From positions 103,494 through 167,493 of IMG/VR virus record IMGVR_UViG_3300050336_000035: a stretch of DNA of 64,000 nt. The stretch is one strand, 5' to 3'. How positions within the stretch are numbered: position 1 is the first letter of the stretch; every line of letters begins with the position of its first letter. The translations under genes and the position numbers were made by a program. A model generated the notes under the pieces. The model made no database searches. It was not told the DNA's origin and saw only the letters and a list, made by a program, of their open reading frames with translations. Shown here in pieces: positions 2 through 36,202 of the stretch. This DNA comes from a virus. Taxonomy: Duplodnaviria > Caudoviricetes.

Positions 2-127
2 CTTAGTGATTTTCTATATAGAAATAAACATATAATAAATGATTTTGAAGATATGTCTGATTGGAGCATGAATAAAGTAATTAAAAATATTTTAACTAAT
101 ACAAATAAATTTTTAAAAACAACATAA
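2..127 (+). CDS. 3' end of hypothetical protein (partial)
   Basis: Open frame from the window edge to TAA 125-127, which begins a boundary site. Confidence 0.6.
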   Translation, partial: LSDFLYRNKHIINDFEDMSDWSMNKVIKNILTNTNKFLKTT

Positions 128-167
128 AAGACAAATTTTATAATGTTTAAGAAAGGAGATAAGCAAT

Positions 168-548
168 ATGTTTTGGACTAAGAAAAATAAAGTAGAAGTA
201 AACCATATAAGAGTATGTGAAGTTAATCAAGGGTTGCCTGAGTGTAATAGTGTTAATAAACTTAGAGAATATCAGCAACAACTCAAAAATATAAAAAATT
301 CTTCATTAACTGATATCTCTGCAAAATACTTGAATGTTGTTAATGATAGTTATTTAAGAAGTGAGTTATATTGTATTGAAGTTATATTAAATCAATTAAT
401 TCGTCGAACAGATAATACATATATTAATTTTGAAGAAAGATTTAAAGCTTTCGGAAAAGAAATTGATGACTATATAAAGAAAGATTGTATAATAGATGAT
501 TTAATTAAGAAAATAAAAGTTGAGAAAAACATATTAGGAATTGAATAG
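168..548 (+). CDS. Hypothetical protein
   Basis: RBS GAAAGGAG; stop inside a boundary site. Confidence 0.8.
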   Translation: MFWTKKNKVEVNHIRVCEVNQGLPECNSVNKLREYQQQLKNIKNSSLTDISAKYLNVVNDSYLRSELYCIEVILNQLIRRTDNTYINFEERFKAFGKEIDDYIKKDCIIDDLIKKIKVEKNILGIE

Positions 549-585
549 AATTCAGTATTTATAGCATTTAAATTGGAGGTTTTTT

Positions 586-792
586 ATGAAAATTTGTAAC
601 AACACAACAGGAATACGTGATTGTAATGATAAATATTATAAATATGGGTTATGTATTAAGAATAGAAAATGTAAAGATTCTTTATTTGTAAATGAAAATG
701 TTATTAAACAATTGATAATTGAAAAATGTGAATATAATAAAATATTTGCTGATTGTATAGATAATCTTATTTATGAAGCAAAAACAATATGA
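586..792 (+). CDS. Small Cys-containing hypothetical protein
   Basis: RBS GGAGG; stop inside a boundary site. Confidence 0.75.
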   Translation: MKICNNTTGIRDCNDKYYKYGLCIKNRKCKDSLFVNENVIKQLIIEKCEYNKIFADCIDNLIYEAKTI

Positions 793-831
793 AATGCCGT
801 TTTTATTTTACATGAAAGGAATGAAGTTTTT

Positions 832-1065
832 ATGGAAGGATTTGTTATTGATATAAATAAATTTAATCCAACACCTGATTATCAAGATTTTAAAAAAATA
901 GATGAAACTATAAATTATTTATTAATAAAAAGAATACCATTTGTTACAACTCAAGATATAATAGTTTTTCATGAAGATATTTACTTGAAATATAAAGATA
1001 ATATAAATTATTGTGTTAATGAATTACAAAATGAATTTTTAACAGAAACAATTAAAAAAATATAA
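832..1065 (+). CDS. Hypothetical protein
   Basis: RBS GAAAGGA. Confidence 0.7.
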   Translation: MEGFVIDINKFNPTPDYQDFKKIDETINYLLIKRIPFVTTQDIIVFHEDIYLKYKDNINYCVNELQNEFLTETIKKI

Positions 1066-1100
1066 AGCATATAAAATGCGTTTCATCAAAAGGAGAAAAC

Positions 1101-1421
1101 ATGATAAAGTATAAAGGGTTAAAATATAGAAAATTCATTAACTTTATTAATAAAGAGTTGCCAACATTTAATATTATAAAGTTAAAATTATTAAAAGGTT
1201 ATGACACAATTGAAGTTAATAAAACTGATAAAGTTTTTGCTCTTTATTATGTTGAAGAGAAAGCAATATACTTACCAACATCAAATGAGGAAGAAATTAC
1301 ATATACAAATTTAGCCCATGAATATGTTCATGCATGGCAAGACGAGAACAATAAAGACTTTAGTGAAGAAGAAGCCGAATTAAAAGCAAGTGAATTATAT
1401 AATAAGTTTAAAATAAGATAA
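1101..1421 (+). CDS. Small zincin-like metallopeptidase domain protein
   Basis: LAHEYVH (HExxH) followed by EEEA; RBS AAGGAG. Confidence 0.7.
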   Translation: MIKYKGLKYRKFINFINKELPTFNIIKLKLLKGYDTIEVNKTDKVFALYYVEEKAIYLPTSNEEEITYTNLAHEYVHAWQDENNKDFSEEEAELKASELYNKFKIR

Positions 1422-1459
1422 AAATGTGTTTTTATTTAAAAAGGAGAAAAGAGGATATA

Positions 1460-2173
1460 ATGATAAAAGTAGGAATTACTGAACGTGGAGATGCAGGATT
1501 AGATTTCTCATGGGTAAACAAATTACTTGATGTAAACATTATTATTACTAAGAATTTAAATGATATAATAATTCAACATCTTATTGATAATAAAAATAAA
1601 ATAATATTACATATGACTTGTACTGGACTTGGAGCAACAAAAGTAGAACCTAATGTTCCCAATGTGAAATTTACTCACAATCAAATATTAAAACTAATTG
1701 ATAGTGGATTTCCTGTAAATCAAATTGTTTTAAGAGTAGACCCTATTATACCATTACAAATTACATTAGAGCAAAGGGTTAAAAAAGTATTAGATTTATT
1801 TAAAGATACAGGAATTAAGAGGGTTAGATATTCATTTTTAGATATGTATCCGCATGTAAAAGAAAGATTAACAAAAGCAGGATTGAATTTACCATATAAT
1901 ACATTTTGTTGTCCAAATTATATGAAAGAAGATGCTTTAAAGTTGTTAAAAGAATATGAAAATATTTATGAATTTGAAGCATGTGCTGAAAACACCTTTC
2001 ATCAATTAGGATGCATTTCACAAAAGGATTTTGATATTTTAGGGATTGAAGAAAAAGCAATACCATCAGGATATCAAAGAAAAGGCTGTTTGTGTATAGC
2101 TGGTAAAACTGAATTGTTGACCAATAAAAAGAAATGTCCTCATGGATGTTTGTATTGTTACTGGAAAGGATAA
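1460..2173 (+). CDS. DUF1848-like Fe-S / radical-SAM-related protein
   Basis: LRVDPII motif and C-terminal CLC...CPHGCLYCYW; start moved to ATG 1460 behind RBS GAGGA. Confidence 0.7.
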   Translation: MIKVGITERGDAGLDFSWVNKLLDVNIIITKNLNDIIIQHLIDNKNKIILHMTCTGLGATKVEPNVPNVKFTHNQILKLIDSGFPVNQIVLRVDPIIPLQITLEQRVKKVLDLFKDTGIKRVRYSFLDMYPHVKERLTKAGLNLPYNTFCCPNYMKEDALKLLKEYENIYEFEACAENTFHQLGCISQKDFDILGIEEKAIPSGYQRKGCLCIAGKTELLTNKKKCPHGCLYCYWKG

Positions 2174-2219
2174 TGTAATAAAATTGGGATTCTACGCTAA
2201 AAAGAGAGGATGAAATAAT

Positions 2220-2504
2220 ATGAGTGAAATAAGTATTGGAGAAGAAAATTATAACTATTTTACAAATGGAAGATATAAAGCAAATAATTCTCCAAAAGCA
2301 AAAAGTATTAAAAAGAAATTAGAAGATAATGGTCATACTAATGTTTTTGTATGGTATGAAAAGCTAGGTAAAGCAATGGAAATGTGTGGTTGTAGTGGAG
2401 GATATATGTATACTTCTGACCAAAGTCCAATAGAACCTATAGGATATTCCTTTGATGAGGCAATGATAACAATAGAGAAAAAATGGCATAAGATATCAAA
2501 ATAA
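2220..2504 (+). CDS. Hypothetical protein
   Basis: RBS GAGAGGA. Confidence 0.75.
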   Translation: MSEISIGEENYNYFTNGRYKANNSPKAKSIKKKLEDNGHTNVFVWYEKLGKAMEMCGCSGGYMYTSDQSPIEPIGYSFDEAMITIEKKWHKISK

Positions 2505-2600
2505 TTGTGATAAATTCTCAGATTCATTCACTTTTTAAAAGTGATTTGTGGTATCTGAACTAACGTCCGCTTAACCAACAAGCATATTGAATCAATGCTT
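2502..2600 (-). ncRNA. Candidate omega/guide RNA, left copy (scaffold 2600-2522, guide from 2521 outward)
   Basis: Own promoter TTGACA-17-TATACT (2636-2608, -); multi-hairpin scaffold covarying with the right copy; guide boundary is inferred. Confidence 0.65.
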
Positions 2601-2607
2601 AGTTATA

Positions 2608-2636
2608 AGTATAAGGAATATTGTGGCAAATGTCAA
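2608..2636 (-). promoter_or_regulatory. sigmaA promoter firing outward through the left end of the TnpB cassette
   Basis: TTGACA-17 bp-TATACT on -; no ORF downstream. Confidence 0.8.
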
Positions 2637-2677
2637 TAAGTTTTACTAATACTTAATTAATATTAAAATAATATCTA

Positions 2678-2706
2678 TTGACAATACCGTTTAATTAATA
2701 TATACT
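2678..2706 (+). promoter_or_regulatory. sigmaA promoter for the RHH gene
   Basis: TTGACA-17 bp-TATACT. Confidence 0.8.
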
Positions 2707-2778
2707 AATAATTGTAAAAGCAACATCTCTTCCGAACCATTACATAATAATGTATAATTAATATGGGAGAGTGATGAT

Positions 2779-2940
2779 ATGCCAAAGTTTAAAAATAATC
2801 ATATTGGATTTAATGTAAGTGATAAATTAAAGAAAAAGACAGAAGAAGTTTCTAAAGAACATGAAATGAGTTTAGCTGATTTTATGAGATACATTTTACA
2901 AAAATATATAGATGAATACGAAATCAAGAAAAACAAGTAG
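2779..2940 (+). CDS. Ribbon-helix-helix (CopG-like) regulator, 53 aa (not in ORF track)
   Basis: MPKFKNNHIGFNVSDKLKKKTEEVSKEHEMSLADFMRYILQKYIDEYEIKKNK; RBS GGGAG. Confidence 0.75.
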   Translation: MPKFKNNHIGFNVSDKLKKKTEEVSKEHEMSLADFMRYILQKYIDEYEIKKNK

Positions 2941-3020
2941 ATATTAAGAGCAATAATATTCTAGTTTAGCTTATTCGGTTTATATTAAGATATTTAACCT
3001 GTTTTAATATCGTTAGTAAT

Positions 3021-3049
3021 TTGATATTTAGTAATTATTCCCTTATAAT
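3021..3049 (+). promoter_or_regulatory. sigmaA-like promoter for 3111..3554 and the tnpB-like gene
   Basis: TTGATA-17 bp-TATAAT. Confidence 0.65.
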
Positions 3050-3110
3050 AAAAATGTAAGTTAAAGGTTGCAACCACACTTACCTAAATTATTATAAGGG
3101 AGTGTAGATT

Positions 3111-3554
3111 ATGGTTAAAATGGATTATGAAAGAAAGTGTGAGTTAAAAAAATTACAACAGTTTCAAGGACACAGAGTTGAAGTTAGTTTTAACACTCAT
3201 ACACATGATAACAATGTGATGGTTACATTTGTTTATAACAACTTTGATTTTGATAACGGCGAATACATATTGTGTCTTTTTGATTCAAAGGATGAAACAT
3301 TGAATGCTAGACTTGAGAAGAATCTTATAACAACTGTAACAAACATTGATGAAGATATATATCATGATGTTGTACATATTTATACTAATAATTTTATACT
3401 CAGCATAACAACTCTTGAAGAACCCATACGCCTACCTAGATGTAATCATTGTGGAAATGAAATTGAATATAATGAATATTGGCTTGATGGTGCTTATGGT
3501 AGGTTAAGACTTTGCGAAGATTGTTGTTTGGATTTGTATCCTGATAACGAATAG
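3111..3554 (+). CDS. Hypothetical protein with C-terminal Zn finger; paralog of 35653..36159
   Basis: Shares HTHDNxVM, FDFDNGE.xLCLFDS.DE.LN.R and YxDVVHIYT with the paralog; CNHC and CEDC. Confidence 0.85.
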   Translation: MVKMDYERKCELKKLQQFQGHRVEVSFNTHTHDNNVMVTFVYNNFDFDNGEYILCLFDSKDETLNARLEKNLITTVTNIDEDIYHDVVHIYTNNFILSITTLEEPIRLPRCNHCGNEIEYNEYWLDGAYGRLRLCEDCCLDLYPDNE

Positions 3555-3581
3555 AAAATTAAATAGAAAGGAGGAGTAATC

Positions 3582-4985
3582 ATGGCTACTGAAATGAGAG
3601 CAATTAAATTCTATTCTAATAATAAAACAACAACTGAAGATTTCAATAAAGGTATTAACTTTCTATCTGAATGCCAAGAAGTTGAAAATGAATTGTTAGA
3701 GTATTATTGGACTAACTTTACTGAAGTTATTAGAGCGAAATCACAACTTGTTTTTTATAAGAATAGAGTCATGATTACTTCTCCTGCTACAAAATTTCAA
3801 CACTATCAACAAATTTTATTTATGGTATTTAGAACACTTAAAAGTTTAGAAGAAAGAATTACTCAAAAAATACATTTTAAATTTGATGATAAAATGAAAC
3901 AAAGAATATATAACTATTGTAGTAAATTCGTTTTTGATTGGGATAAACTTGAAACATATGTATCTAAACAAATTAAACAGTATAAAAAGAAAGACAAAAA
4001 GTATTATGACTTCTTAATAGAAGTTCAAAAAATTATTGATAATGAACAGGCTTTTTTAAAACTAAAACAAGATATAGAAAATAAGTTTTGGGATTTAAAA
4101 AATAAAATTAATCAACCTGTTAAGAAATCTAAGCAAATATGGGCTACAACTTTTCATACTGTAGATATCGAAAAGTATAATGATTATTGGGTATTTGTGA
4201 TTGACACCAATAAATTTTTAAGTCCTCGCAATATGGATAAGTTTAAAATAGTTGTAAGTATTTCTGATTATCACAGAGATATTCTTAATTCCAATACACT
4301 TCAAAATACTTTTTCTATTAAGTTAAATGATTATGGTAGAATCGAAATTTTTGGAGCATATGAAATTGATATAAATTATCCAACACCTAATCCTGTTGAT
4401 ACTATTGGCATAGATATAGGTTTGAAGAAACTTATTACATCATCTGATGGTGAATTTATTGAACAGAATAAAAACATTGTAAAGAAAGCTCAAAAGTTAA
4501 TTAAGAATCAAGCTAATAGACAGAGTTTGGAAGCTCATATGAAAAAGAAATTAGAAGATGAGAATTTTACTTTACCTGATAAAAATTATATGAAGAAACA
4601 AAACAAATTAAGTAGATTTGTTCAATGTGATAATAGGTATAAAGTTAAACAATTTCTCAAAGGTAGGGAAGATACTCATATCATTATGGAAGATTTGCAT
4701 TTAAATGATGCCAAGACATATAGTAAAGAAGTAAATTATATGTTAAGAAGGATGAAGATACAAGGCATTAAAAATGACATTCTAAAATACACAAAAGAGA
4801 TGGGCATCAAGACTACACAAGTAAATCCTAGATATACGAGTATTGAGTGTCCTATATGTGGCTGTATTGATAAAAAAAATAGACAGACACAAGAAACATT
4901 TAAATGTGTTAAATGTAGTCATACAGATAATGCAGACCACAATGCTAGTATTAATATTGAAAATAAATATTTAAAGGCACAATAA
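3582..4985 (+). CDS. tnpB: TnpB/Cas12f-like RNA-guided endonuclease
   Basis: RuvC-I GIDIG, RuvC-II IMEDL, Zn ribbon TSIECPICG...FKCVKC, RuvC-III NADHNASINI; 467 aa; D-E-D triad intact. Confidence 0.9.
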   Translation: MATEMRAIKFYSNNKTTTEDFNKGINFLSECQEVENELLEYYWTNFTEVIRAKSQLVFYKNRVMITSPATKFQHYQQILFMVFRTLKSLEERITQKIHFKFDDKMKQRIYNYCSKFVFDWDKLETYVSKQIKQYKKKDKKYYDFLIEVQKIIDNEQAFLKLKQDIENKFWDLKNKINQPVKKSKQIWATTFHTVDIEKYNDYWVFVIDTNKFLSPRNMDKFKIVVSISDYHRDILNSNTLQNTFSIKLNDYGRIEIFGAYEIDINYPTPNPVDTIGIDIGLKKLITSSDGEFIEQNKNIVKKAQKLIKNQANRQSLEAHMKKKLEDENFTLPDKNYMKKQNKLSRFVQCDNRYKVKQFLKGREDTHIIMEDLHLNDAKTYSKEVNYMLRRMKIQGIKNDILKYTKEMGIKTTQVNPRYTSIECPICGCIDKKNRQTQETFKCVKCSHTDNADHNASINIENKYLKAQ

Positions 4986-4992
4986 TAAATAT

Positions 4993-5088
4993 AAGGCTTT
5001 AATTTAACGCCTATAGTTAAGCGTACATTAGTACAGATACTATAAATCGCTTTTAAAAGTGAATGAATTGTAGGATTTATATGCTTAT
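4993..5088 (+). ncRNA. Candidate omega/guide RNA, right copy (scaffold 4993-5068, guide from 5069 outward)
   Basis: Directly downstream of tnpB, the usual omegaRNA position; hairpins AGGC/GCCT, TATAGT/ACTATA, GTAC/GTAC, TCGCTT/AAGTGA covary with the left copy. Confidence 0.65.
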
Positions 5089-5105
5089 TATATAAAATAT
5101 AAAGT

Positions 5106-5684
5106 GTGGTGATAATAATAGCAAAAACAGAAATGACATTAAATCTAGAAAAAGAATTGTATTCAAGTACAAACAAAATGGGCGTGTTTGGTTGTTTTGA
5201 AGTTACTATAGGTTGGTATGGCAAAGAACGTGTTGATTATATTACATATGATACTAAAGGGGTTTGGCGTTGTTATGAAATAAAAGTGTCTAAAGCAGAC
5301 TTTCATAGTAAGGCAAAGAAAACATTTGTTGGACATTTTAATTATTATGTTATGCCAAGAGAATTATATGAGGAAGTTAAAGACGAAATACCGAAACATA
5401 TAGGTGTACATATTGGTAGTGGTTGTATAAAGAATGCAAAGAGACAAGAATTATCTGTTGATGAGAAAATATTAAAAGATTCTTTAATACGTTCATTGTG
5501 TCGAGATGCAGAAAAAATTTATACTTCAGAAAATGTTAATTATATTAATAGACTTAAAAAACAAATATCAAATCTTGAAAAAGAAAGTAAAGAATGGAGA
5601 AAAGACTACTACGATTTATATAAAAAAGTTAGAGAATTGTATGGTAGAGATTGGGATAAGGATTTGATTAATTTTGATGAGTAG
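5106..5684 (+). CDS. MmcB-like PD-(D/E)XK nuclease domain protein
   Basis: EVTIG...RVDYI...CYEIKVSKADFHS. Confidence 0.7.
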   Translation: MVIIIAKTEMTLNLEKELYSSTNKMGVFGCFEVTIGWYGKERVDYITYDTKGVWRCYEIKVSKADFHSKAKKTFVGHFNYYVMPRELYEEVKDEIPKHIGVHIGSGCIKNAKRQELSVDEKILKDSLIRSLCRDAEKIYTSENVNYINRLKKQISNLEKESKEWRKDYYDLYKKVRELYGRDWDKDLINFDE

Positions 5685-5919
5685 GACTATAATTATGAAT
5701 AGAAAAACACTAATAAACATACTCAATAATTATGATGGAATTGTAGCAAAAGAAGTATCTAAAGAAGAATATGATAATTTAATCATAGAAGATACTATAC
5801 CCGTTTTAGATGATATCAAAGGTATAATAATTAAGAAATCTTATTATCCAGATTATGAAGGTTGTAAGTGGTTGATTACATACAAGATATTGGCTGAAAT
5901 AAAAGTAAAGAGTTTATAA
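5674..5919 (+). CDS. Hypothetical protein
   Basis: Overlaps the upstream gene; stop inside a boundary site. Confidence 0.7.
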   Translation: MMSRTIIMNRKTLINILNNYDGIVAKEVSKEEYDNLIIEDTIPVLDDIKGIIIKKSYYPDYEGCKWLITYKILAEIKVKSL

Positions 5920-5959
5920 AATCGGGGTTCTGTTGTGTTTTTAGATATTAAAATAATAT

Positions 5960-5988
5960 TTGACAATTCTCAAACTTGATATTATAAT
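5960..5988 (+). promoter_or_regulatory. Consensus sigmaA promoter inside a cassette
   Basis: TTGACA-17 bp-TATAAT. Confidence 0.85.
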
Positions 5989-6033
5989 TATCTTGAGGTG
6001 ATAAAATTCATCAACTTAAAGAGAGGAAAAAAT

Positions 6034-6204
6034 ATGTTTAAAAAACTTAAAGAATGGATTTTAAATAAAATACTCAAAAGAGACTATACAATGACTTATG
6101 TTATGGGTGTAGATATTTATGGTACAGAATATGGCTATAAGAAAGAAGGATATAGAGATAAAAGTGGTCAAATTCACATTAGTAAAGTTACACTCTTTGA
6201 ATAA
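6034..6204 (+). CDS. Hypothetical protein
   Basis: ATG behind RBS GAGAGG; stop inside a boundary site. Confidence 0.65.
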   Translation: MFKKLKEWILNKILKRDYTMTYVMGVDIYGTEYGYKKEGYRDKSGQIHISKVTLFE

Positions 6205-6239
6205 ATCAGCAATTCTATGATAAATAAAGGAGAATTTTT

Positions 6240-6404
6240 ATGATTAATTGTAATGCAGAATGTAAATATGAGTGTAATGGAGAATGTATTTTACATCCAG
6301 ACAAAATAAAACTTGTAATAAGAAAATATAGTGATGATTTTAAAAAACAATATTTAGAATGTGATTCTCAAATTCTTGAAGATAGAGACATGGGAATTAG
6401 ATAA
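6240..6404 (+). CDS. Small Cys-rich hypothetical protein, 54 aa (not in ORF track)
   Basis: RBS AAGGAG; MINCNAECKYECNGEC...; fills the space between two boundary sites. Confidence 0.7.
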   Translation: MINCNAECKYECNGECILHPDKIKLVIRKYSDDFKKQYLECDSQILEDRDMGIR

Positions 6405-6436
6405 AATCAAACTTCTATGATGATTGGAGAAAAAAC

Positions 6437-6760
6437 ATGAATGATATAATAATAAGTTTACTTAAAGAAAAGATAGATTATTATTCTCATAATGCTAAAT
6501 TGTTATATGATGATTATAAATATTACTGTTATGTTAAGGCTTTACGTCAGGAACTATACAGCACATTAAAAATTAGAAATGAATTCAAAAGAGCATTAAA
6601 AGAATATAAGAAACTATTACATAATGTACAGATAGAAAAGTATAAAAAAGCAATAAAAGAATATAGAGAACATCCAGACAAATATGCAGAAGATATTTTG
6701 GGAGTAAAGCTATATCCATATCAAAAAGAAATATTAAAATATTTTTATAAAGCAAGATAG
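6437..6760 (+). CDS. Hypothetical protein; C-terminus resembles a terminase large-subunit N-terminal motif
   Basis: YREHPDKYAEDILGVKLYPYQKEIL. Confidence 0.65.
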   Translation: MNDIIISLLKEKIDYYSHNAKLLYDDYKYYCYVKALRQELYSTLKIRNEFKRALKEYKKLLHNVQIEKYKKAIKEYREHPDKYAEDILGVKLYPYQKEILKYFYKAR

Positions 6761-6796
6761 AAAACTTAATTCATCACAAATTGAAAGGAAAACAAA

Positions 6797-7114
6797 ATGA
6801 ATAATAATTTACCTTGCGAAGATAATGATTGTGCATATTATAAAATGGATTACCAAGATAGAACTTATTGTAGTAAGAAAAATAGATTCATAGATAATGA
6901 AACAGGTGAATGCGAATATTTTACGCCTTCTCAAACTTGTGATTTGTGCAAACATTCTTATATGAAAGTCTATGAAACTGGTTCTATAGATGATATTGAA
7001 TATTATTGTAAATTACAAAATGGGAAATTAATATATGATGATTTAAGTCCTTATATGATAAATTTTGCAGATTTTCCTAAATGTAATATAAACAAATTTG
7101 AAAAGAAGGACTGA
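6797..7114 (+). CDS. Cys-rich hypothetical protein
   Basis: RBS GAAAGG; multiple Cys. Confidence 0.75.
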   Translation: MNNNLPCEDNDCAYYKMDYQDRTYCSKKNRFIDNETGECEYFTPSQTCDLCKHSYMKVYETGSIDDIEYYCKLQNGKLIYDDLSPYMINFADFPKCNINKFEKKD

Positions 7115-7155
7115 ATCAATTCACCATTTTAATCACTTTTAGAAAGGAGGTAATT

Positions 7156-7593
7156 ATGTCTGAGGAAAGTTTAAAACTTAGTAAAACAAGAAAAGAATAT
7201 TGTGAATACATATATTATAGAATACTAAATAAATTAAAAGAAGCCAATGAACATCAATTACTAGCTTTTGCTATGTTAGGTATGCATTTATGCTTAAGAC
7301 AATCTGATATTCTTAAATTAAAATGGGAACAAATTGATTTTGAAAATATGAAAATAAACAATGTGCATCTTCTTAAAGGTGGTTACATTGGCTCTCTTGA
7401 TTTAGAAATTAGATTGGTTAGTGCTTTAAAGAAATGGTATGAAAATACTGATGACAAAACAATGATATTTCCTAAATTAAAAAGATATGAAACAGGAAAT
7501 AAAATTGGTGAGTTAATAGGAGATACAACATTTAATAATCACGATTTAAGAAGTATTGGTTTATGTTTAAAATTGCAAGGGGTTATATATTAG
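7156..7593 (+). CDS. Truncated tyrosine recombinase catalytic-domain protein
   Basis: LRQSDILKLKWEQIDF and HDLR boxes present; lacks the core-binding domain and the H/W-Y region. Confidence 0.75.
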   Translation: MSEESLKLSKTRKEYCEYIYYRILNKLKEANEHQLLAFAMLGMHLCLRQSDILKLKWEQIDFENMKINNVHLLKGGYIGSLDLEIRLVSALKKWYENTDDKTMIFPKLKRYETGNKIGELIGDTTFNNHDLRSIGLCLKLQGVIY

Positions 7594-7635
7594 CATGAAA
7601 ATATCTTTTATTTAAAAAAGAGGAGTAATATAAAA

Positions 7636-7797
7636 ATGTTAAATGTTGATAAAAATATAATTAATTTTATAAATAGTGATGAATATAAGTGGTATAAAGA
7701 TGGTACAAAAAATGGAATTTGGATTGGATTATTTTTAGGGTTTTGGCTTGGAATGTTAATGATGACTATATTAGTTATAATAGGATTCTTTAAATAA
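7636..7797 (+). CDS. Small membrane protein, 53 aa (not in ORF track)
   Basis: RBS GAGGAG; hydrophobic C-terminus; stop inside a boundary site. Confidence 0.7.
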   Translation: MLNVDKNIINFINSDEYKWYKDGTKNGIWIGLFLGFWLGMLMMTILVIIGFFK

Positions 7798-7822
7798 AAC
7801 TACTCTTCTAAACACATTTTTA

Positions 7823-8710
7823 TTGAAAGGATTGAAGAAAATATCTAAATATAAATATAATGATTATCACAAAGAGATAAATGGAAAAGAATATAAAAAA
7901 TGTACATTACATAATGAGTACTTTCCTAATGATTCTGAATGGTTTATTTGTTCATCTGATTTTTTCTTTGTTAACAAAACAAACAAGACCGATGGGTTAT
8001 ATCCCTATTGTAAAAAATGTTCAAGTAAAAAATATATGAAATGGGAGAAAGAACATCCTGAAGAATATTTAGCACATAATTTCAGACAAAATCGAAGAAA
8101 AGAAAAAATAGAAGCAAGAAGAAAAATATCTCAGCAACGAAGAGAAAATGGTTACTATGATGATTATTTTGAATTGAATCCAGAAAAGAAAAAACAATAT
8201 GCTGAAAATCATCGAGACCATGATATAACAAATGCAGAATGGATAGCTAATAAAAACTTTTTTAAAAATGAAAATGGGGAATGGGTATGTGCCTATTGTG
8301 GAATGACAGAAAAGGAACATAAGACTATTAGAAGAGAGCAACTTCACAAAGAACATGTTGAACACAATGGATATAATGATGTAAGAAATTGTGTTCCTGC
8401 TTGTTACACTTGTAACTCTAGTAAATGGCAATATGACATGGAAACTTGGTATAGAGAACAAACATTCTTTAACGAAGATAATCTTGCTAAAATAAAACTT
8501 TGGTGTTCAAATGAATATAAAAAATATATTGAAGATAAACCACCATATATTATAAAACGAAGTAGAGTAAATGATGATAATGGCAAATATCATTATGAAT
8601 ATAATTTATGGACTGTTGATGTAATGAGAAATATAGTTGAAATAATTTATACAGGTAATAAGAAAAAGGATATGATTAATTACATAAACAATAATAAATT
8701 AGAAAATTGA
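7823..8710 (+). CDS. HNH endonuclease
   Basis: CAYCG...HKEHV...NCVPACYTCNSSK; N-terminal Zn motif; start uncertain. Confidence 0.85.
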   Translation: MKGLKKISKYKYNDYHKEINGKEYKKCTLHNEYFPNDSEWFICSSDFFFVNKTNKTDGLYPYCKKCSSKKYMKWEKEHPEEYLAHNFRQNRRKEKIEARRKISQQRRENGYYDDYFELNPEKKKQYAENHRDHDITNAEWIANKNFFKNENGEWVCAYCGMTEKEHKTIRREQLHKEHVEHNGYNDVRNCVPACYTCNSSKWQYDMETWYREQTFFNEDNLAKIKLWCSNEYKKYIEDKPPYIIKRSRVNDDNGKYHYEYNLWTVDVMRNIVEIIYTGNKKKDMINYINNNKLEN

Positions 8711-8715
8711 AACAT

Positions 8716-8739
8716 AGGCGTAGAGCCTATTCTACGCCT
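8716..8739. terminator. Hairpin after the HNH gene
   Basis: AGGCGTAGA-gcctat-TCTACGCCT. Confidence 0.6.
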
Positions 8740-8792
8740 TAAAAAACATGATGAAACATGAAATTCATGCTGTTATTGGAAGGAATTAAATT

Positions 8793-9227
8793 ATGAGTTA
8801 TGTCAATGATTATCAAAAGAAGCGCAAAGATGAATATTTAGAACAGGGTTATGATTTAGCACAAGCTAATATTAAATTTAAACGTTGGATGCAAAATCAC
8901 ACTACTAAACAAAAGAAAGTATTTAAAAGAAATGGATTAAAATATATTTATGTTAATTATACACCTTATATAGATTCTGGATGCGAAAAGTGGTATGTAG
9001 ATATTGATTATAATACAAATATATGCTATCTATATCATAAAAATAGAGAAAATGGAACATATCATTTTCAACAAGAATTCAACAAAGGTAAATTTATTAC
9101 TGATAATTTGATTAATATTTGTAATTATATATGGGGACATTCAAATAAACATATTCAAAAAGATTTTAATAACACATTAAGAGATAAATTATATAAAGCA
9201 GGAATTGAAGAAACACTATTGAGTTAA
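8793..9227 (+). CDS. Hypothetical protein
   Basis: RBS GGAAGG. Confidence 0.75.
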   Translation: MSYVNDYQKKRKDEYLEQGYDLAQANIKFKRWMQNHTTKQKKVFKRNGLKYIYVNYTPYIDSGCEKWYVDIDYNTNICYLYHKNRENGTYHFQQEFNKGKFITDNLINICNYIWGHSNKHIQKDFNNTLRDKLYKAGIEETLLS

Positions 9228-9288
9228 TATGAAATTGGACTTTCATTTGGTTTATTTAGTTATGATATAAAAAAAATAATTTTTTAAT

Positions 9289-9630
9289 ATGAAAGGGAAG
9301 AAAATAATGAAAGAGATTTTAACAACTTTTGGTTTACCTATTTTAACTGGTATATTTGCATTTTTAGGTTCTATATACAAAAGTAGAATTGACTTAAAAA
9401 AGCAAATAGATTTAAACAATGCAGAATTAGAAAAAGTACGTGAGCAATGCAATAACGAAATCGAAAAAATCAAGGCACAAGCCGAGACTCAAGCACAATT
9501 ATATGAAAAGAATGCACAAACCGACATAACAACTACTTTTATGAATACTTTATTTAAGAATCCAAAAATTTCAAATACTATTAATGATTTTATGATTAAA
9601 GAAATGAATAAATCATTTTTGTCAAAATAA
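9289..9630 (+). CDS. Membrane-anchored coiled-coil protein
   Basis: N-terminal TM segment then coiled coil; true start may be Met7. Confidence 0.7.
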   Translation: MKGKKIMKEILTTFGLPILTGIFAFLGSIYKSRIDLKKQIDLNNAELEKVREQCNNEIEKIKAQAETQAQLYEKNAQTDITTTFMNTLFKNPKISNTINDFMIKEMNKSFLSK

Positions 9631-9705
9631 AACCCTTGCTACATAAGGGTTTCAGAACACAAAAATGTGATGAAATGGATATTTTATAATGAGGTTAATT
9701 TAATT

Positions 9706-9840
9706 ATGGATAATAAAGAAAAAGAAAAAATTAAGAAATTTGCAGAAGCTTTATTTGATAAAAGAATGTTAGAAATATTAAAACCCTATCAATATAATCA
9801 GAAGATTTGTAAATTTATTGAAATTAAAAATATAAAATAA
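9706..9840 (+). CDS. Small hypothetical protein, 44 aa (not in ORF track)
   Basis: RBS GAGGT; lies between two boundary sites. Confidence 0.55.
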   Translation: MDNKEKEKIKKFAEALFDKRMLEILKPYQYNQKICKFIEIKNIK

Positions 9841-9861
9841 AAGAATAATTAGTGAGGATAT

Positions 9862-10200
9862 ATGAATTTACATAAGTTTTTTATAGATAAAATAAATGAA
9901 GAAATATATAAAGCTCTAGGAGTTAGTGACTCATTGTTTGTGTCAACATCAGCAACAACCACTAATAATTGTGCCGTGTCAATAGAAGAAATAAAACTAG
10001 CATTAGAAAATGTAAGACCTGAACATGCAGTTTTACTTAGTAATTATGCTCCACATGGAACTGATATTTTTGAAATCGAGAATCCTTTGCCAGATAAATA
10101 TTTCTGTAAAAAATTACTTTTACTAAATGCAGATTGTTATGAATCTTTGCTTAAGAAAATTTTAGAAGAATATAACTGTGATATAAAAGTTTATAGATAA
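9862..10200 (+). CDS. Hypothetical protein
   Basis: RBS GAGGA; stop inside a boundary site. Confidence 0.75.
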   Translation: MNLHKFFIDKINEEIYKALGVSDSLFVSTSATTTNNCAVSIEEIKLALENVRPEHAVLLSNYAPHGTDIFEIENPLPDKYFCKKLLLLNADCYESLLKKILEEYNCDIKVYR

Positions 10201-10240
10201 AATTATGTTTTGGTCATATTATTAGAAAGGAAATTTTTAA

Positions 10241-10411
10241 ATGAAAAATATTGAAGAAGTAAGGAAAATTTGCGGTCATTATTGGAATAAGCCAGAGTAT
10301 AAACCACAGTTAAATGAACATAGATGTCATCATATTGCTGGTAATAGTTGCCCAAATAGTTTTAAAGATTGCCCATTATACAAATTAGTTCAAAAAAATA
10401 TTATAAAATAA
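10241..10411 (+). CDS. Small Cys/His-rich protein, 56 aa (not in ORF track)
   Basis: RBS GAAAGG; MKNIEEVRKICGHYW...CPLY. Confidence 0.65.
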   Translation: MKNIEEVRKICGHYWNKPEYKPQLNEHRCHHIAGNSCPNSFKDCPLYKLVQKNIIK

Positions 10412-10437
10412 TAGATTCATTATGAAATGAGGTAACT

Positions 10438-17472: not shown

Positions 17473-17510
17473 AATAAAAAATCTATTTTATAAAGAAAGG
17501 AATTTTAAGA

Positions 17511-17756
17511 ATGAAAATTGATATTAAAGGAAATGGAAATACAAAACAATTAATTAACATGCTTGCGTGGATTGAATTACTAGGTAATGTAGGACATAGT
17601 GCTGATTTTAAAGTGTTTGCCGATGGAGATGGCTCTACTAGATGGAAATTTAAGTTTGAAAATGAAGAACAACAGAAAGAATTTGATGCTTTAAGAAAAG
17701 ATTTGTGTAAAGAATATATAAACACTAACATAGATATAGAACATTTTTCAATATAA
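17511..17756 (+). CDS. Hypothetical protein
   Basis: RBS GAAAGG. Confidence 0.75.
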   Translation: MKIDIKGNGNTKQLINMLAWIELLGNVGHSADFKVFADGDGSTRWKFKFENEEQQKEFDALRKDLCKEYINTNIDIEHFSI

Positions 17757-17797
17757 GGAAGACAAGTACTGTATTTTGTCATAAACGAGGTGATTAA

Positions 17798-18058
17798 ATG
17801 AACCAAAATTTTAACTTTGTATTTTGTAAGCATCATGGAGATTTTGAATATTGCTACAAACAATGTAAAAAGGATTGTCCTTCTGTAAGTAATTTATGGC
17901 ATAAATTTATAAGAAATCCTATAGTAAATTTAATTACGGCAATAAGATACAAATTTCAGAAATGTAACCAATTACCTACACAATGTAGTTTTCTTTATAA
18001 GAATAAATATTGTTTGTTTCAAGATAGAAATTGTTATTCAAACAGAACTAAAAAGTGA
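17798..18058 (+). CDS. Cys-rich hypothetical protein
   Basis: RBS GAGGTG. Confidence 0.7.
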   Translation: MNQNFNFVFCKHHGDFEYCYKQCKKDCPSVSNLWHKFIRNPIVNLITAIRYKFQKCNQLPTQCSFLYKNKYCLFQDRNCYSNRTKK

Positions 18059-18099
18059 TTAAAAGACTCATTCTATTATAAGTAGAAAGGAAATTAATA

Positions 18100-18225
18100 A
18101 TGGAATTTTATAAAATATATTGTACTTGTTTTACTACATTCTTTTTAATTGCAATGTTATTAAACATTCCAATAGAAGTAAAACAAATAAATCCAAAGCG
18201 TGGTGCATTTTTTATGAAGAAATAA
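18100..18225 (+). CDS. Small hydrophobic protein, 41 aa (not in ORF track)
   Basis: RBS GAAAGG; lies between two boundary sites. Confidence 0.5.
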   Translation: MEFYKIYCTCFTTFFLIAMLLNIPIEVKQINPKRGAFFMKK

Positions 18226-18526
18226 TTAACACAAAAAGCTTGTTTTATTGTAAAGGAGTTACTAAATGAAATACATAATATTTTTCAACACTAATCCTTA
18301 TATGGATATACACAGTTTGGAATGGAATTAAAATTGGAATATATAGTGGAAGTTTTAATTTTGAGATTGAAGCATATCCAATAAAAAGATTTTTTAAGAA
18401 GAAATAATATAATATATAGCCGTATCCTAGCCCTCAAATATATATCAAATGTACAAATGGTGGTTAGAAAATCTGTGAGAGCTAGGAACACTTCATATTT
18501 TGAACGAAAGGTAGGAAATTATACAT

Positions 18527-18691
18527 ATGCAAACATATAAAATGAATTGTATTCGCTGTAATAAAGAAATGAGTTATATTCCAGATTCTGTGCTTGAAGC
18601 TAGAGGATATGTAGTTATGTATTGTGAAAATTGTAAACAGGAATTTTTAGTACCAGATAGCAATGAAGATTTACATATAATAAATGAGTGA
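18527..18691 (+). CDS. Small zinc-ribbon protein, 54 aa (not in ORF track)
   Basis: CIRC and CENC motifs; RBS AGGTAGG. Confidence 0.65.
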   Translation: MQTYKMNCIRCNKEMSYIPDSVLEARGYVVMYCENCKQEFLVPDSNEDLHIINE

Positions 18692-18714
18692 AGAACAAGA
18701 AAGGAAATTATTTT

Positions 18715-19092
18715 ATGGAATATATTAAAAGATTAACCGAGCAGCAACAAAAAGTTTTTGATGTAATGTTACATATGGCAAGAGTAAGACAGAGTTATTT
18801 ATTATCTTCAGAAGATAGGGGTATAGGTAAATCAATTACTCTTAATGAATTAGCCTTTACATTACAGACTATAGGGTATGATGTGTATTTATTAAATCCT
18901 CATCCTGTTAAAGATTACTATGTTAATAATATAATTGCTCTTGATAGCAAATCTTATGAGGGACTATTTAGGGAAAATTCTGTTGTTATAGCAGATGAAT
19001 CAAGATACGAAATGATGGATGATATTTTAGAGTATTGTAAATACAAAAAAGTACCTATTGTTGGATATGTCAATTTTGAAACTAGCCTATAG
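18715..19092 (+). CDS. Small P-loop NTPase-like protein
   Basis: LTEQQQKV, RGIGKS, VIADE; ATG behind GAAAGG. Confidence 0.6.
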   Translation: MEYIKRLTEQQQKVFDVMLHMARVRQSYLLSSEDRGIGKSITLNELAFTLQTIGYDVYLLNPHPVKDYYVNNIIALDSKSYEGLFRENSVVIADESRYEMMDDILEYCKYKKVPIVGYVNFETSL

Positions 19093-19159
19093 CAAGGGTT
19101 TTAAGACTCAAAAAGTGAATGAAAAACACATTTTATTGTTAATATAAATTTAAAAGGAT

Positions 19160-19963
19160 GTGATTACTATATCAAAAATTGTAAATGACAAATATTACAC
19201 ATCACCAGAATTAGCAGAATACATAGTTAATAAAACTAAAAAAATTATAGGTGAAGAAAAAATTACTGAATATATAGAACCATCAGCAGGTGGAGGAGCA
19301 TTTCTTGATTATCTTGATAAATCATTTTTAGCATATGATATTGAACCTGAAGATAATAGAATTCTTAAACAAGACTTTCTTAGCTTGGACTTAGATTATA
19401 AAAAAGGTAGATGTATTATTGGAAATCCACCTTATGGAGAATTTAATCTTTTGTCTGAAAAGTTTTTTAAAAAATCTATAAAAATTTGTGATTATATTTC
19501 ATTTATTCAACCTATTAGTCAATATAAAAATAATATAAAGCTATATGAATTTGACTTAATATATAGTGAAGATTTAGGAAAACAAATATATACTGATAGG
19601 GAAATTCATTGTTGTTTAAATATTTATAGAAGACCTATAAATGGAGAAGTAAATAAAAAACAAAACTATAAATTAAAAGATGTATCAATCACGAGATTAG
19701 ATAGAGGAAGTAAAACAATTATTAATGAATATGATATTAATATTTGTTCTTATGGTGCATCAATAGGAAAAATACCTAAATTTATAGGACAATACAGTCA
19801 AGAACTTTATATAAAAATATGTAATGAAAAATATAGAAACCAAATAATAAATTTAATTATTAATACTAATTGGAAACAAATAATTGATATGACTGCAACA
19901 CCAAAACTTCAAATATGGAGAGTATATAAATACATAAAAGAACAAATTCCAGAAATTCAATAA
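19160..19963 (+). CDS. DNA amino-methyltransferase (orphan)
   Basis: YYTS, IEPSAGGGAF, IGNPPY. Confidence 0.88.
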   Translation: MITISKIVNDKYYTSPELAEYIVNKTKKIIGEEKITEYIEPSAGGGAFLDYLDKSFLAYDIEPEDNRILKQDFLSLDLDYKKGRCIIGNPPYGEFNLLSEKFFKKSIKICDYISFIQPISQYKNNIKLYEFDLIYSEDLGKQIYTDREIHCCLNIYRRPINGEVNKKQNYKLKDVSITRLDRGSKTIINEYDINICSYGASIGKIPKFIGQYSQELYIKICNEKYRNQIINLIINTNWKQIIDMTATPKLQIWRVYKYIKEQIPEIQ

Positions 19964-20100
19964 ATTGTAACAGTATTGTAATATGCAATTCAAAGTAAAT
20001 AAAAGTATGAGTGAGTATATGGAAGTTGTAAGTTACTAAAAACATGATAAAATCAGGATTTGGTTGTAAAAATAAAATTTAATTTATAGGAGGATAAAAT

Positions 20101-24752: not shown

Positions 24753-25661
24753 ATGCTAAACTTTTCAGAAGAGTGTCCACAGGTACTTAAAGACTTTATT
24801 AATTATTGTTATTTATCTAAAAATCTATCACAAGGAACTCTAAAACAATACTATTTCGACCTTATGAAATTTATTAAATACTTTGCTAAGTTTAAACCAC
24901 AAAACTTTGATGTTATAGAAATTGAAAGAATAACATCCTCAGATTTACAAAACTATCTTTATGACACCACTATTGATAAATCTGCTCCCAGTAGAGCAAG
25001 AAAAATAGCATCGCTTAAATCATTTTTTAAATGGTTATATGTTAATGAAAAGGCTATTAATCAAAATATTACTGAAGTTTTAAACACACCTAAAATACCA
25101 AAGTCTCTTCCCCTATATCTTTCGGTAGAAGAGTGTAAACAGTTATTAGATGCTGTTGATGGAGATTTTAAAGAGCGTGACTATGCTATTCTCAATACAT
25201 TTCTATTGACTGGTATTAGGCTTAGTGAACTATGTGGTATTAATTTATCTGATATCAAGGATAATGTATTAAAAGTCAAAGGGAAAGGAAGAAAAGATAG
25301 GTCTATTCCCCTTTCTTCAACCTGTATCCAATCAATTGAAAATTACATAAAAGTTAGACTTATACCTAAAGACGATAAAGATGCTCTTTTTATAAGCCGA
25401 TTAAGAACAAGAATTTCGCATAGTTCAGTTGAAAAACTAGTAGACAAATATATTCAAAAAGCTGGACTAGACAAAAAAATGTCAGTACACAAACTTAGAC
25501 ACTCTTTTGGTACTATTTCTTATGAGTATGGTAATAAAGATATTCGTGCTTTACAAGAATTAATGGGGCATGAAAGTATTCAGACAACCACTATTTATAC
25601 TCATGTTAAGCAAGAGCAATTAAGAGAAATGATTGAGAATAATCCATTAAATAAAAAATAA
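24753..25661 (+). CDS. XerC/XerD-like tyrosine recombinase
   Basis: TGIRLSEL, KGKGRKDR, HKLRHS, LMGHESIQTTTIYTH; full R-K-H-R-H-Y set. Confidence 0.95.
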   Translation: MLNFSEECPQVLKDFINYCYLSKNLSQGTLKQYYFDLMKFIKYFAKFKPQNFDVIEIERITSSDLQNYLYDTTIDKSAPSRARKIASLKSFFKWLYVNEKAINQNITEVLNTPKIPKSLPLYLSVEECKQLLDAVDGDFKERDYAILNTFLLTGIRLSELCGINLSDIKDNVLKVKGKGRKDRSIPLSSTCIQSIENYIKVRLIPKDDKDALFISRLRTRISHSSVEKLVDKYIQKAGLDKKMSVHKLRHSFGTISYEYGNKDIRALQELMGHESIQTTTIYTHVKQEQLREMIENNPLNKK

Positions 25662-27898: not shown

Positions 27899-28083
27899 AA
27901 ATATATTTCACTTCACTTTCCAAAAAATTTGTAATATAATGTAGTCATCCAAAATAATCATAATAAAAAGAAGAGAAGATAAGTCATTATTAAACCTAAA
28001 ATCTCTTCTTTTTATTGAAATTAGTATACTATATATTGTATAAAATAGTAAATTAAATACAACATATTGATTCAAAAACCGAA

Positions 28084-28099
28084 TAAAATAGTTGTTTCA
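28084..28099. repeat. Isolated boundary site
   Basis: caaaaaccgaa-TAAAA-tagttg-TTTCA, downstream of two small - strand ORFs. Confidence 0.6.
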
Positions 28100-28130
28100 T
28101 CTTATGTGATTGTGTAATAATATTAACTAA

Positions 28131-28310
28131 CTATGAATTAGCTGTAAGCAATCTATCAATCCAATTACACGTATCTTCTGACAAGTTTAATTTTATTGCT
28201 AAGTTTTTCATTGTATTTGTAGGAGTTGGACTCTGTTCTTCTAAACCCATTTCAACTAATTCTTTTAATAAATTTAATTCATCATCTTCTAGTAAAATAG
28301 AACTAGACAT
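28131..28310 (-). CDS. Small hypothetical protein, 59 aa (not in ORF track)
   Basis: MSSSILLEDDELNLLKELVEMGLE...; RBS GAGGT. Confidence 0.6.
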   Translation of the reverse strand: MSSSILLEDDELNLLKELVEMGLEEQSPTPTNTMKNLAIKLNLSEDTCNWIDRLLTANS

Positions 28311-28348
28311 AACTTATTACCTCACCTTCCTATGTTTATAATAATAAC

Positions 28349-28522
28349 CTACTTAGAATTCAATGCTTTGTTAAATCTTTCAATATATAATTCTTTTCTT
28401 TGTATAAGTTCTTCATACTCATCTACTTCAACATTAATACTCCTATCATTAATTACTATACTTTCTGCATCTTCCCATTCAGATAAAAGTTCGTTAAAAA
28501 TATCTTGTAACTTTTCTTTCAA
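28349..28522 (-). CDS. Small hypothetical protein, 57 aa (not in ORF track)
   Basis: TTG start behind AGGAG; MKEKLQDIFNELLSEWED... Confidence 0.6.
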   Translation of the reverse strand: MKEKLQDIFNELLSEWEDAESIVINDRSINVEVDEYEELIQRKELYIERFNKALNSK

Positions 28523-28762
28523 ATAAATTCACTCCTATCTTTTAAAATGTTATAATGTATCCTAAAAAGGGGGATATATAAATGGAATGTTTAGATGATT
28601 CAAAGGCTTGCCTTTCAGTTTCTAATTTTATGCTAAATGATATTGAAAAAATGTATAGAGAATCACTACTTATGGACAAGCCTTCGTCTGCATTAAAAGT
28701 TACAATTTAGAAATCCTTCTTTCCAAATTACTTAATCACATATTTTACATTGACTAAAATCA

Positions 28763-31025: not shown

Positions 31026-31057
31026 ATAGACCTCCTTATATTATATTAATATTAAAT

Positions 31058-32242: not shown

Positions 32243-32258
32243 ATCCTTTCAATATTTT

Positions 32259-36144: not shown

Positions 36145-36202
36145 AAATTTAACCTCCACATAATATAAATTTTTGTATAGGTAAGAATTACCTTACATTT
36201 AC

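Follow-up and report, generated by a model that had tools for sequence, protein, structure and literature searches.

An 18-bp dyad, ATRAAA-N6-TTTYAT, recurs between the genes of a phage genome, and we consider it slightly more probable than the contrary that its copies are site-specific recombination sites whose 6-bp centres act as locus addresses, permitting the ordered replacement of gene cassettes between related genomes. The stretch under study (hereafter the window) comprises 64,000 nucleotides and is the final 64 kb of the 167,493-bp IMG/VR virus record IMGVR_UViG_3300050336_000035 (hereafter G000). This interpretation is built on the motif itself, its symmetry at the level of DNA, the constraints on its centres, the conservation and collinearity of those centres in two phages and the unrelated contents of the slots that they delimit.

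The dyad and its distribution

The dyad was derived de novo: Gibbs sampling, run on every upstream region of G000, was followed by genome-wide refinement of a position weight matrix (PWM). Counts were made with the symmetrised PWM at a score cut-off of at least 7 and compared with second-order Markov (Markov-2) nulls. G000 contains 97 such dyads against 23.6 expected, and 80 of the 97 are intergenic in a genome whose intergenic DNA amounts to ~14%; detection by the arms alone yields 82 sites versus 17.8 expected. An initial annotation of the window had described a 16-bp palindrome at nearly every gene boundary of an array at 125-10419. The palindrome is real and non-random, and the enrichment over background is borne out genome-wide. 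The unit, however, is 18 bp, and a dyad scoring at least 7 is present at 14 of the 25 gene junctions in positions 1-10,800 (at 18 of 25 with a score of at least 5), where 21 copies had been counted. Nor does the array form a confined 10-kb platform: dyads span G000 from 4 kb to 161 kb and reach their highest density between 27 and 123 kb. The statement that the coupled core blocks are free of sites holds for 20101-23071 but not for 10784-17472, where a strong match lies inside an open reading frame (ORF) at 11880.

The placement of the dyads is regular. A dyad typically starts 1 nt ahead of the stop codon (14 of 76) or 2-13 nt past it, and ends 17-40 nt ahead of the next start codon; on the transcribed strand the right arm usually ends 5-12 nt ahead of the Shine-Dalgarno sequence. 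An A-run occupies positions -9 to -5 of the flank and is mirrored by a T/A-run on the other side. All eleven positions at which the left arm had been said to supply the stop codon are indeed stop codons, and in eight cases a good dyad starts 1 nt before the stop (124, 545, 789, 1418, 5916, 6201, 6401 and 6757); the dyads at 10197 (score 6.1) and 7794 (5.3) are weak, and 9838 is unsupported (best score -1.1). A general feature of gene ends was rejected, as the contexts of all 300 stop codons do not contain the motif, and so was a generic enrichment of palindromes, as inverted repeats with 6-nt loops occur no more often than those with loops of another length. The dyad was also rejected as a promoter: it is a symmetric site, and since its right arm ends just 5-12 nt ahead of the Shine-Dalgarno sequence, a transcript would begin inside or past it. 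The genes of 125-10419 do appear to be mostly promoterless, as first described. The plus strand holds only three sigma-70-like promoters with 11-12 of 12 matches (2678, 3021 and 5960) and promoter-like counts overall equal those of shuffled sequence; several promoters in G000 have a dyad 25-26 nt upstream of their -35 element. Many plus-strand junctions (for example at genome 29720, 49410, 56415, 74600, 83950 and 94915) share a second intergenic motif, (T)ATTAATATAAT, which is located 1-5 nt ahead of the Shine-Dalgarno sequence, often directly after a dyad. It is too near the Shine-Dalgarno sequence to be a -10 element.

The dyads of the window and the associated TnpB module are given below in window coordinates, with the dyads listed without strand.

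124..141, dyad, centre gacaaa; left arm holds the stop codon; same centre at G006 55713
545..562, dyad, centre ttcagt; same centre at G006 56018
789..806, dyad, centre tgccgt; same centre at ~G006 56650, where the right arm is degenerate
1069..1086, weak dyad, score 5.9
1418..1435, dyad, centre atgtgt
2178..2195, dyad, centre ttggga; same centre at G006 58013
2510..2527, dyad at the left junction of TnpB module 3, centre tctcag; same centre at G006 58492
2522..5068, plus strand, TnpB module 3 in a single slot: Arc/CopG-like gene, Zn-ribbon gene and 467-aa TnpB
5063..5080, dyad at the right junction of TnpB module 3, centre tgtagg; same centre at G006 59126
5916..5933, dyad, centre tcgggg; the -35 element of a strong promoter lies 26 nt downstream
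6201..6218, dyad, centre cagcaa
6401..6418, dyad, centre tcaaac
6757..6774, dyad, centre aactta, score 7.0
7794..7811, weak dyad, score 5.3
8751..8768, dyad, centre catgaa; same centre at G006 64624
9229..9246, dyad, centre ttggac, score 12.0
9670..9687, dyad, centre tggata, score 11.3
10197..10214, weak dyad with the TTTGGT arm variant, score 6.1
10403..10420, dyad, centre taatag
17474..20064, four more dyads, starting at 17474, 18231, 19119 and 20047
28083..57959, nine scattered matches scoring at least 7 in the minus-strand part, starting at 28083, 32712, 47491, 49261, 50818, 52386, 55488, 57148 and 57942; six of the nine (28083, 47491, 49261, 50818, 52386 and 57942) are intergenic

Three partial relatives, whose accessory genes have almost no DNA similarity to those of G000, carry dyads of the same architecture: G001 (capsid 82% identical to that of G000) has 23 versus 4.4 expected, G002 (capsid 75% identical) 18 versus 4.2, and G006, a 65-kb fragment syntenic with G000 68-113 kb, 35 versus 8.2, of which 27 are intergenic. 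Enrichment was not convincing in the more distant G003 and in contig G005 of a metagenome-assembled genome (MAG). A capsid relative at 58% identity sits in a Peptococcaceae MAG, where 9 of 15 exact dyads fall in a 140-kb phage-like contig and 6 in the remaining 2.76 Mb, which makes a host regulon unlikely; by PWM this contig has few intergenic sites.

Two half-sites and a constrained centre

When oriented by transcription, both arms show the same spectrum of variants, the minor forms ATAGAA, ATAAAT, ATGAAT and ACCAAA being equally common on either side. Among the G000 sites ATAGAA never faces TTCTAT, and ACCAAA never faces TTTGGT, across one dyad. Arm-to-arm Watson-Crick pairs in the 80 intergenic dyads number 369, as compared to 375.6 +/- 5.6 when right arms are dealt randomly, the flanks offer no pairing beyond the arms, and a search of the dyads against Rfam returned no family. 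Because the arms do not covary, the dyad is, as judged from sequence, a double-stranded DNA site of two half-sites, as for two identical protomers, and a hairpin of RNA or DNA, tried as an explanation, is rejected on the arm-shuffle test, the lack of compensatory arm variants and the Rfam result.

The centres behave differently from random spacers. The 80 intergenic centres of G000 are all distinct and 42% G+C within intergenic DNA of 23% G+C, in agreement with the ~40% first counted by hand. All-A/T centres are absent from 111 intergenic dyads detected by arms only in four genomes, where ~23 would be expected at 23% G+C. Moreover, the centres within a genome avoid one another: under a null that preserves the strong/weak pattern of each centre, pairs alike at five or more of six positions are depleted in both G000 (17 versus 30.8 +/- 5.0) and G006 (0 versus 3.2 +/- 1.7), and G000 has no pair of identical centres where 3.2 are expected.

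Shared addresses around unrelated genes

Although distinct within a genome, the centres recur between genomes. G000 and G006 share 13 dyad pairs with identical centres, as compared to an expectation of 2.94 and no more than 8 in any of 400 shuffles; the 13 pairs agree in orientation and are collinear without exception. Alignment adds two collinear pairs (71283/4045 and 82178/20034, G000/G006), and reading of the G006 sequence one more (tgccgt, window 789 / ~56650). Across the 13 pairs the arms are 75% identical and the 40-nt flanks 36-37%, the background for this composition, and ungapped identity plots display sharp islands at the dyads. The higher conservation of centres than of arms carries an ascertainment caveat for these short islands; four pairs lying inside long high-scoring segment pairs, found independently of their centres and thus free of centre-based selection, have centres identical at 24 of 24 positions within flanks of 68-81% identity. 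The two address patterns searched recur in G006 only.

In three slots that were compared, the proteins encoded between shared addresses are unrelated. The gacaaa-ttcagt slot encodes 126 aa in G000 and 88 aa in G006, and the ttggga-tctcag slot 94 and 144 aa; in neither case does BLASTP return an alignment at E<=100. For the ttcagt-tgccgt slot (68 versus 118 aa) the best BLASTP result is an 11-residue match at E 0.18. Since some genes near shared dyads retain 55-85% identity, the pattern between G000 and G006 is, by these comparisons, one of mosaic replacement and not of uniform decay. These observations support the proposal that the dyads are cassette boundaries, as same-order identical centres surround unrelated genes and, as described below, the homology around one TnpB module breaks at its dyads. 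Two other parts of the early proposal do not hold. Shuffling was invoked, but site order is conserved and replacement in place is seen; a recombinase tolerant of any spacer was invoked, but the centres are conserved across orthologous sites and kept different within a genome, which argues that matching centres are needed.

Two observations concern the contents of this region. HNH-endonuclease-like paralogues (window 7823-8710 and genome 82233-82994) fill slots in G000, G001 and G006 and therefore belong to the variable cargo. A non-coding stretch of 85-90 nt directly upstream of the acgctg dyad (genome 79313-79396 / G006 18206-18294) is ~75% identical between the two phages. With its promoter-like start, TTGTCACA...TAATATGATAAT, the stretch may represent a regulatory region or a small RNA.

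TnpB modules occupy dyad slots

A second line of evidence comes from the modules that carry TnpB. G000 holds three copies of 2.5-2.8 kb, ~80% mutually identical (genome 79409-82183, module 1; genome 44871-47301; window 2522-5068, module 3), and a fourth copy is found in G006 (29627-32192). Each encodes a small regulator, a Zn-ribbon protein and a 467-aa TnpB; the regulator differs by copy, being XRE-type in copy 2 and Arc/CopG-like in copy 3, and the 147-aa Zn-ribbon protein has a predicted fold with a pLDDT of 63 and no meaningful match in the PDB. The modules end in inverted repeats of ~65-85 nt, whose outermost 6 nt are, in module 3, the inner arms of the two junction dyads. At all eight ends of the four modules the terminal half-site and an arm outside it, exactly 6 bp away, compose a full dyad, and homology among the copies ends at the boundary between inner arm and centre. 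The centres at the junctions of module 1 (acgctg/aacgtg) and module 3 (tctcag/tgtagg) recur in G006 in the same order, where other genes, 1.7 kb and 0.6 kb respectively, lie between them, the latter being two unrelated small genes. In the comparison of module 1 with G006, homology reaches as far as the final base of the left dyad and picks up again 1 nt ahead of the right one. G006 20034 was rejected as an empty site of module 1: the left-junction dyad is also present 1.7 kb upstream, which indicates replacement. Searches of G000 found neither a Y1 (HUH) transposase (PF01797) nor a serine recombinase, and for this reason the modules appear to behave as cassettes of the dyad slot system.

The terminal inverted repeats of the modules resemble outward-facing RNA scaffolds, and the left end bears an outward sigma-70-like promoter (minus strand, 2636-2608 in module 3). 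The sequence available for G001 and G002 contains no module, G002 having only a TnpB-like ORF of 25% identity. A 90-aa XRE helix-turn-helix (HTH) protein together with a 168-aa homologue of the Zn-ribbon protein, and no TnpB, is encoded at window 35653-36537 (minus strand); the pair could be a remnant or an ancestor of the modules, and the 168-aa protein has no Pfam or PHROG family and no confident fold.

Candidate recombinases and regulators

Four genes of G000 have the tyrosine-recombinase fold. Three (302, 384 and 210 aa) seem to have intact catalytic motifs on reading of their translations, and the fourth is a truncated remnant of 145 aa.

24753..25661, plus strand, intact Xer-like tyrosine recombinase, 302 aa; adjoins the rep gene and iterons; candidate dyad reader
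47999..49153, minus strand, tyrosine integrase, 384 aa; candidate dyad reader
7156..7593, plus strand, truncated tyrosine-recombinase-like ORF, 145 aa, inside one slot; lacks the C-terminal segment bearing the catalytic His and Tyr
Genome 18693-20438 region, minus strand, tyrosine recombinase (19806-20438), 210 aa, catalytic domain only; adjoins a GIY-YIG nuclease gene

The 302-aa protein scores 233 bits with the XerC model, under the cut-off of 335 bits. Beside its gene, where a lox-like site was sought, iterons only were present, and nothing found ties this recombinase to the sites. G001 and G002 also carry tyrosine recombinase genes, and in G001 the GIY-YIG homologue likewise adjoins an Xer-like gene. 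A small XRE protein is the sole non-structural protein common to all four dyad-bearing genomes; G000 further contains XRE and Arc-like genes and several HNH and GIY-YIG genes.

A model for ordered cassette replacement

How might the dyads work? In the model that we propose, two protomers of a recombinase, most likely a tyrosine recombinase, would occupy each site on its two inverted 6-bp half-sites (ATRAAA), between which lies a 6-bp crossover region. Because every centre in the genome differs and contains G/C, productive recombination of a site would be restricted to its counterpart of identical centre in a related genome that is co-resident. A single exchange would produce a crossover at a gene boundary, and two exchanges at neighbouring sites would replace the cassette between them; gene order would be retained and deletions within a genome avoided. 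The TnpB modules would be cassettes that bring their own inner arms. We infer that the exchange is enzymatic and site-specific, that it requires matching centres and which kind of enzyme performs it. Conservative site-specific recombination with matching crossover regions would be the simplest mechanism for everything seen, and would account for the shared arm consensus and the fixed 6-bp gap, for centres that never repeat inside a genome yet are conserved from one genome to another, and for the preserved site order. It is possible, with a chance somewhat short of even, that the system is a natural counterpart of recombinase-mediated cassette exchange, in which ~100 heterospecific sites with shared arms and unique, conserved 6-bp crossover addresses would allow accessory genes to be swapped in place between related phages, with neither scrambling nor deletion, while RNA-guided TnpB modules ride in the slots.

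Several points weigh against this model. The conserved arms (6 bp and an A-rich flank) are short for a tyrosine-recombinase site. The evidence for conserved addresses depends on the single genome pair G000 and G006, and identical centres shared by G000 and G001 (4 versus 1.9) are not significant. A 1.7-kb indel of 4-5 genes between G000 and G006 has a dyad at neither edge, two junctions between L041 and L043, which are 98% identical, fall 8 nt and ~40-55 nt past a dyad, and one internal junction of G000 lies at least 4 nt beyond the right arm of a dyad. The tyrosine recombinases of G000 are candidate readers of the dyad, none of them linked to the sites; the Xer-like gene adjoins a rep gene and iterons in the manner of a plasmid dimer-resolution module, and its G001 counterpart is 26% identical. 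Finally, the four modules sit between different centres, so that their spread to new slots would need tolerance of mismatched centres or another route.

Could the same pattern arise with no dedicated enzyme? Module swapping at boundary sequences has reportedly been proposed for T4 promoter early stem-loop (PeSL) elements and for lambdoid phages, and the dyads might likewise be boundary or linker sequences at which annealing, homologous or microhomology-mediated recombination acts on short patches of identity. Conserved islands with replaced flanks fit this explanation too; several islands exceed the dyad (by ~20 nt downstream at 124, by ~85 nt upstream at G000 79397 and by a terminator hairpin at 8751), and some junctions fall a few nucleotides outside it. 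We nevertheless regard general recombination as unlikely, as it leaves unexplained why ~100 junctions in four phages share one consensus with a fixed 6-bp spacing and why the centre is better conserved than the arms, and several islands offer only 11-15 nt of uninterrupted identity, which is short for homologous recombination. A smaller probability still attaches to stoperator-like operators dispersed for a dimeric phage regulator, with the recombination pattern as a secondary effect. Dyad symmetry without arm covariation would suit a dimeric binder, the location between stop codon and Shine-Dalgarno sequence recalls the L5 stoperators and the Cluster O 17-bp dyad repeats. The phage-plasmid look of the genome with its XRE-type HTH genes, the small XRE protein common to the four dyad-bearing genomes and the dyads 25-26 nt upstream of several -35 elements are consistent with such a regulator. 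Operators would, however, predict arms more conserved than an uncontacted centre, and the opposite is found (15 collinear pairs with identical centres and arms at 75%); the mutual dissimilarity of centres within a genome, the islands between unrelated genes and the module ends made of half-sites would find no explanation either.

The dyads could also be targets of a site-specific nuclease, whether TnpB with a guide RNA, HNH or GIY-YIG, such that double-strand breaks at dyads would promote templated repair and replacement. This accords with module ends that abut dyads, with terminal scaffolds facing outward, the left one with its own promoter, and with the several HNH and GIY-YIG genes of the genome. 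The dyads are, however, far more numerous than the modules; no module is present in the available G001 and G002 sequence beyond the TnpB-like ORF of G002; and repair requires flanking homology, while the flanks are at background identity. We consider nuclease targeting very improbable. An intercistronic element acting at the RNA level, as a hairpin, processing site or translational signal, is largely refuted and has next to no probability in our estimate. Its appeal lies in the position of the dyad, which on the transcribed strand follows the stop codon and usually precedes the Shine-Dalgarno sequence by 5-12 nt. Against it stand the arms that do not covary, with ATAGAA/TTCTAT and ACCAAA/TTTGGT never paired, the absence of an Rfam match, stems that would amount to 4-6 A-U pairs, and the same variants on both arms, which point to double-stranded DNA.

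Relation to known systems

The cassette-replacement model has precedents in its parts. Xer/dif, invoked in the initial annotation, is a fair analogy: in difH, TGAAAA-N6-TTTTCA, specific recognition is limited to the inner 5 bp of each arm, and there is hardly any contact with the 6-bp centre. The 6-6-6 layout with fixed spacing matches that of difH, the distance from G to C being 12 nt here and 14 nt in difH, and dif-type arms end in A-runs and T-runs beside the centre, as do those of G000. The arms of pdif sites end in A-runs and T-runs as well. The pdif modules of Acinetobacter plasmids are likewise bounded by short two-armed sites with a 6-bp centre, hold one to few genes and show the same sites around different cargo, a property shared by G000 and G006 (15 collinear dyads with identical centres, three tested slots with unrelated contents and two TnpB slots that differ). 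In contrast to pdif, G000 has ~100 sites in a phage, near-palindromic arms instead of a C/D heterodimer site, and locus-specific centres conserved between genomes with site order retained; a link to host Xer is not seen in the distribution of dyads in the MAG.

Integrons resemble the array in their mostly promoterless, co-oriented small genes, each followed by a site, with the stop codon often in or near it, and in their large stable arrays. An attC site folds into an imperfect hairpin through paired R''/L''-L'/R' boxes, and an integron has its integrase gene beside attI and a promoter for the cassettes. The G000 sites, however, are 18-bp double-stranded dyads without the long folded attC and without selection for pairing; no attI/Pc/intI platform is present, and replacement occurs in place rather than insertion at one end. 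With the integron-integrase model TIGR02249 the best recombinase scores 106 bits against a cut-off of 265; it lies 14 kb from the array, beside rep and iterons. Repetitive extragenic palindromic (REP) elements and IS200-IS605 go together with a Y1 (HUH) transposase or RAYT and with hairpin ends; the genome has no PF01797 match and the modules have true terminal inverted repeats. Engineered cassette exchange with heterospecific lox or FRT sites employs shared arms and different spacers, only sites of the same spacer recombine, and replacement is in place. That is a two-site laboratory design, unlike the ~100 natural addresses of G000, for which the need for matching centres would be the common principle.

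Stoperators occupy short intergenic spaces, may overlap stop codons, and are 13 bp long and orientation-dependent. In Cluster A, many sites for L5 gp71 are spread over the phage genome, and stoperators are described as asymmetric sites bound by a monomeric repressor (PMC9283540). The G000 dyads differ from stoperators, which have no variable centre, and whereas contacted half-sites would be expected to be the more constrained part, orthologous centres are identical and arms 75% so. The PeSL cassettes of T4-type phages, in which an early promoter comes after a stem-loop terminator, are similar in that repeated intergenic elements border variable genes, with indels and replacements between close relatives; they are described as composite promoter-terminator elements acting via homologous recombination (Arbiol 2010, Comeau 2014, PMC2839356, PMC4122927). 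The G000 dyads, in contrast, lack selection for a stem, have a unique centre in each copy and are mostly without a promoter, strong promoters following few of them. Cluster O mycobacteriophages contain more than 30 dispersed 17-bp dyad repeats, many in short intergenic gaps and of unknown function, with invariant 7-mer arms and a 3-bp centre that is mostly AAA or TTT; recombination between copies accounts for some indels, and the authors preferred binding sites of a dimeric regulator (PMC4351075). Dispersed, dyad-symmetric intergenic copies are thus common to Cluster O and G000, and locus-specific centres were not reported for the former.

Repeated dyads at phage gene borders (Cluster O repeats, stoperators and PeSLs) and site-flanked modules in plasmids and integrons are therefore already known. 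The papers searched contain no comparable set of addressed sites, and we know of no description, for any virus, of ~100 sites that have their arms in common, carry conserved centres specific to each locus and bound gene slots open to replacement.

The phage and neighbouring features

G000 has 127-bp direct terminal repeats and is 73% A+T. Among its gene products are tail and capsid-like proteins, anaerobic NrdD/NrdG and a second integrase, and it has a rep gene of plasmid type accompanied by iterons. With rep gene and iterons beside the Xer-like recombinase, and this second integrase, G000 may be a temperate phage-plasmid. Window 23162-25661 looks like a plasmid maintenance block, with a replication-initiator gene, four to five iterons (about ACTACAAGAAAATTTA) and the intact Xer-like recombinase, and suggests a phage-plasmid lifestyle. 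A search of a deposited phage collection with G000 gave no close match, and queries with DUF1848 and NrdD did not find relatives in IMG/VR; NrdD relatives in metagenomes are short and ~75% identical, the array proteins are singletons when clustered at 90%, and a second assembly (Logan) represents the same phage.

Two further observations were made. A 121-aa protein at window 16222-16587 matches the C-terminal domain of the RNA polymerase alpha subunit (PF03118, precomputed matches) and may compete for UP-like elements (GATATTAAAATAATAT) ahead of strong early promoters. In L043, an insertion of 1,041 nt (3096-4137) interrupts the NrdD gene when compared with its sibling L040 (99.6% identical); an intron or intein that carries a homing gene is the probable explanation.

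Implications

What are the consequences of addressed sites for phage evolution? How whole genes are cleanly exchanged in mosaic phage genomes is a long-standing question, and the dyads offer a concrete candidate at the level of sequence. If an enzyme reads them, the placement of TnpB modules that lack a transposase would be explained, a large set of mutually orthogonal recombination sites would become available for genome engineering, and the dyads would constitute a new class of mobile-gene platform in viruses.

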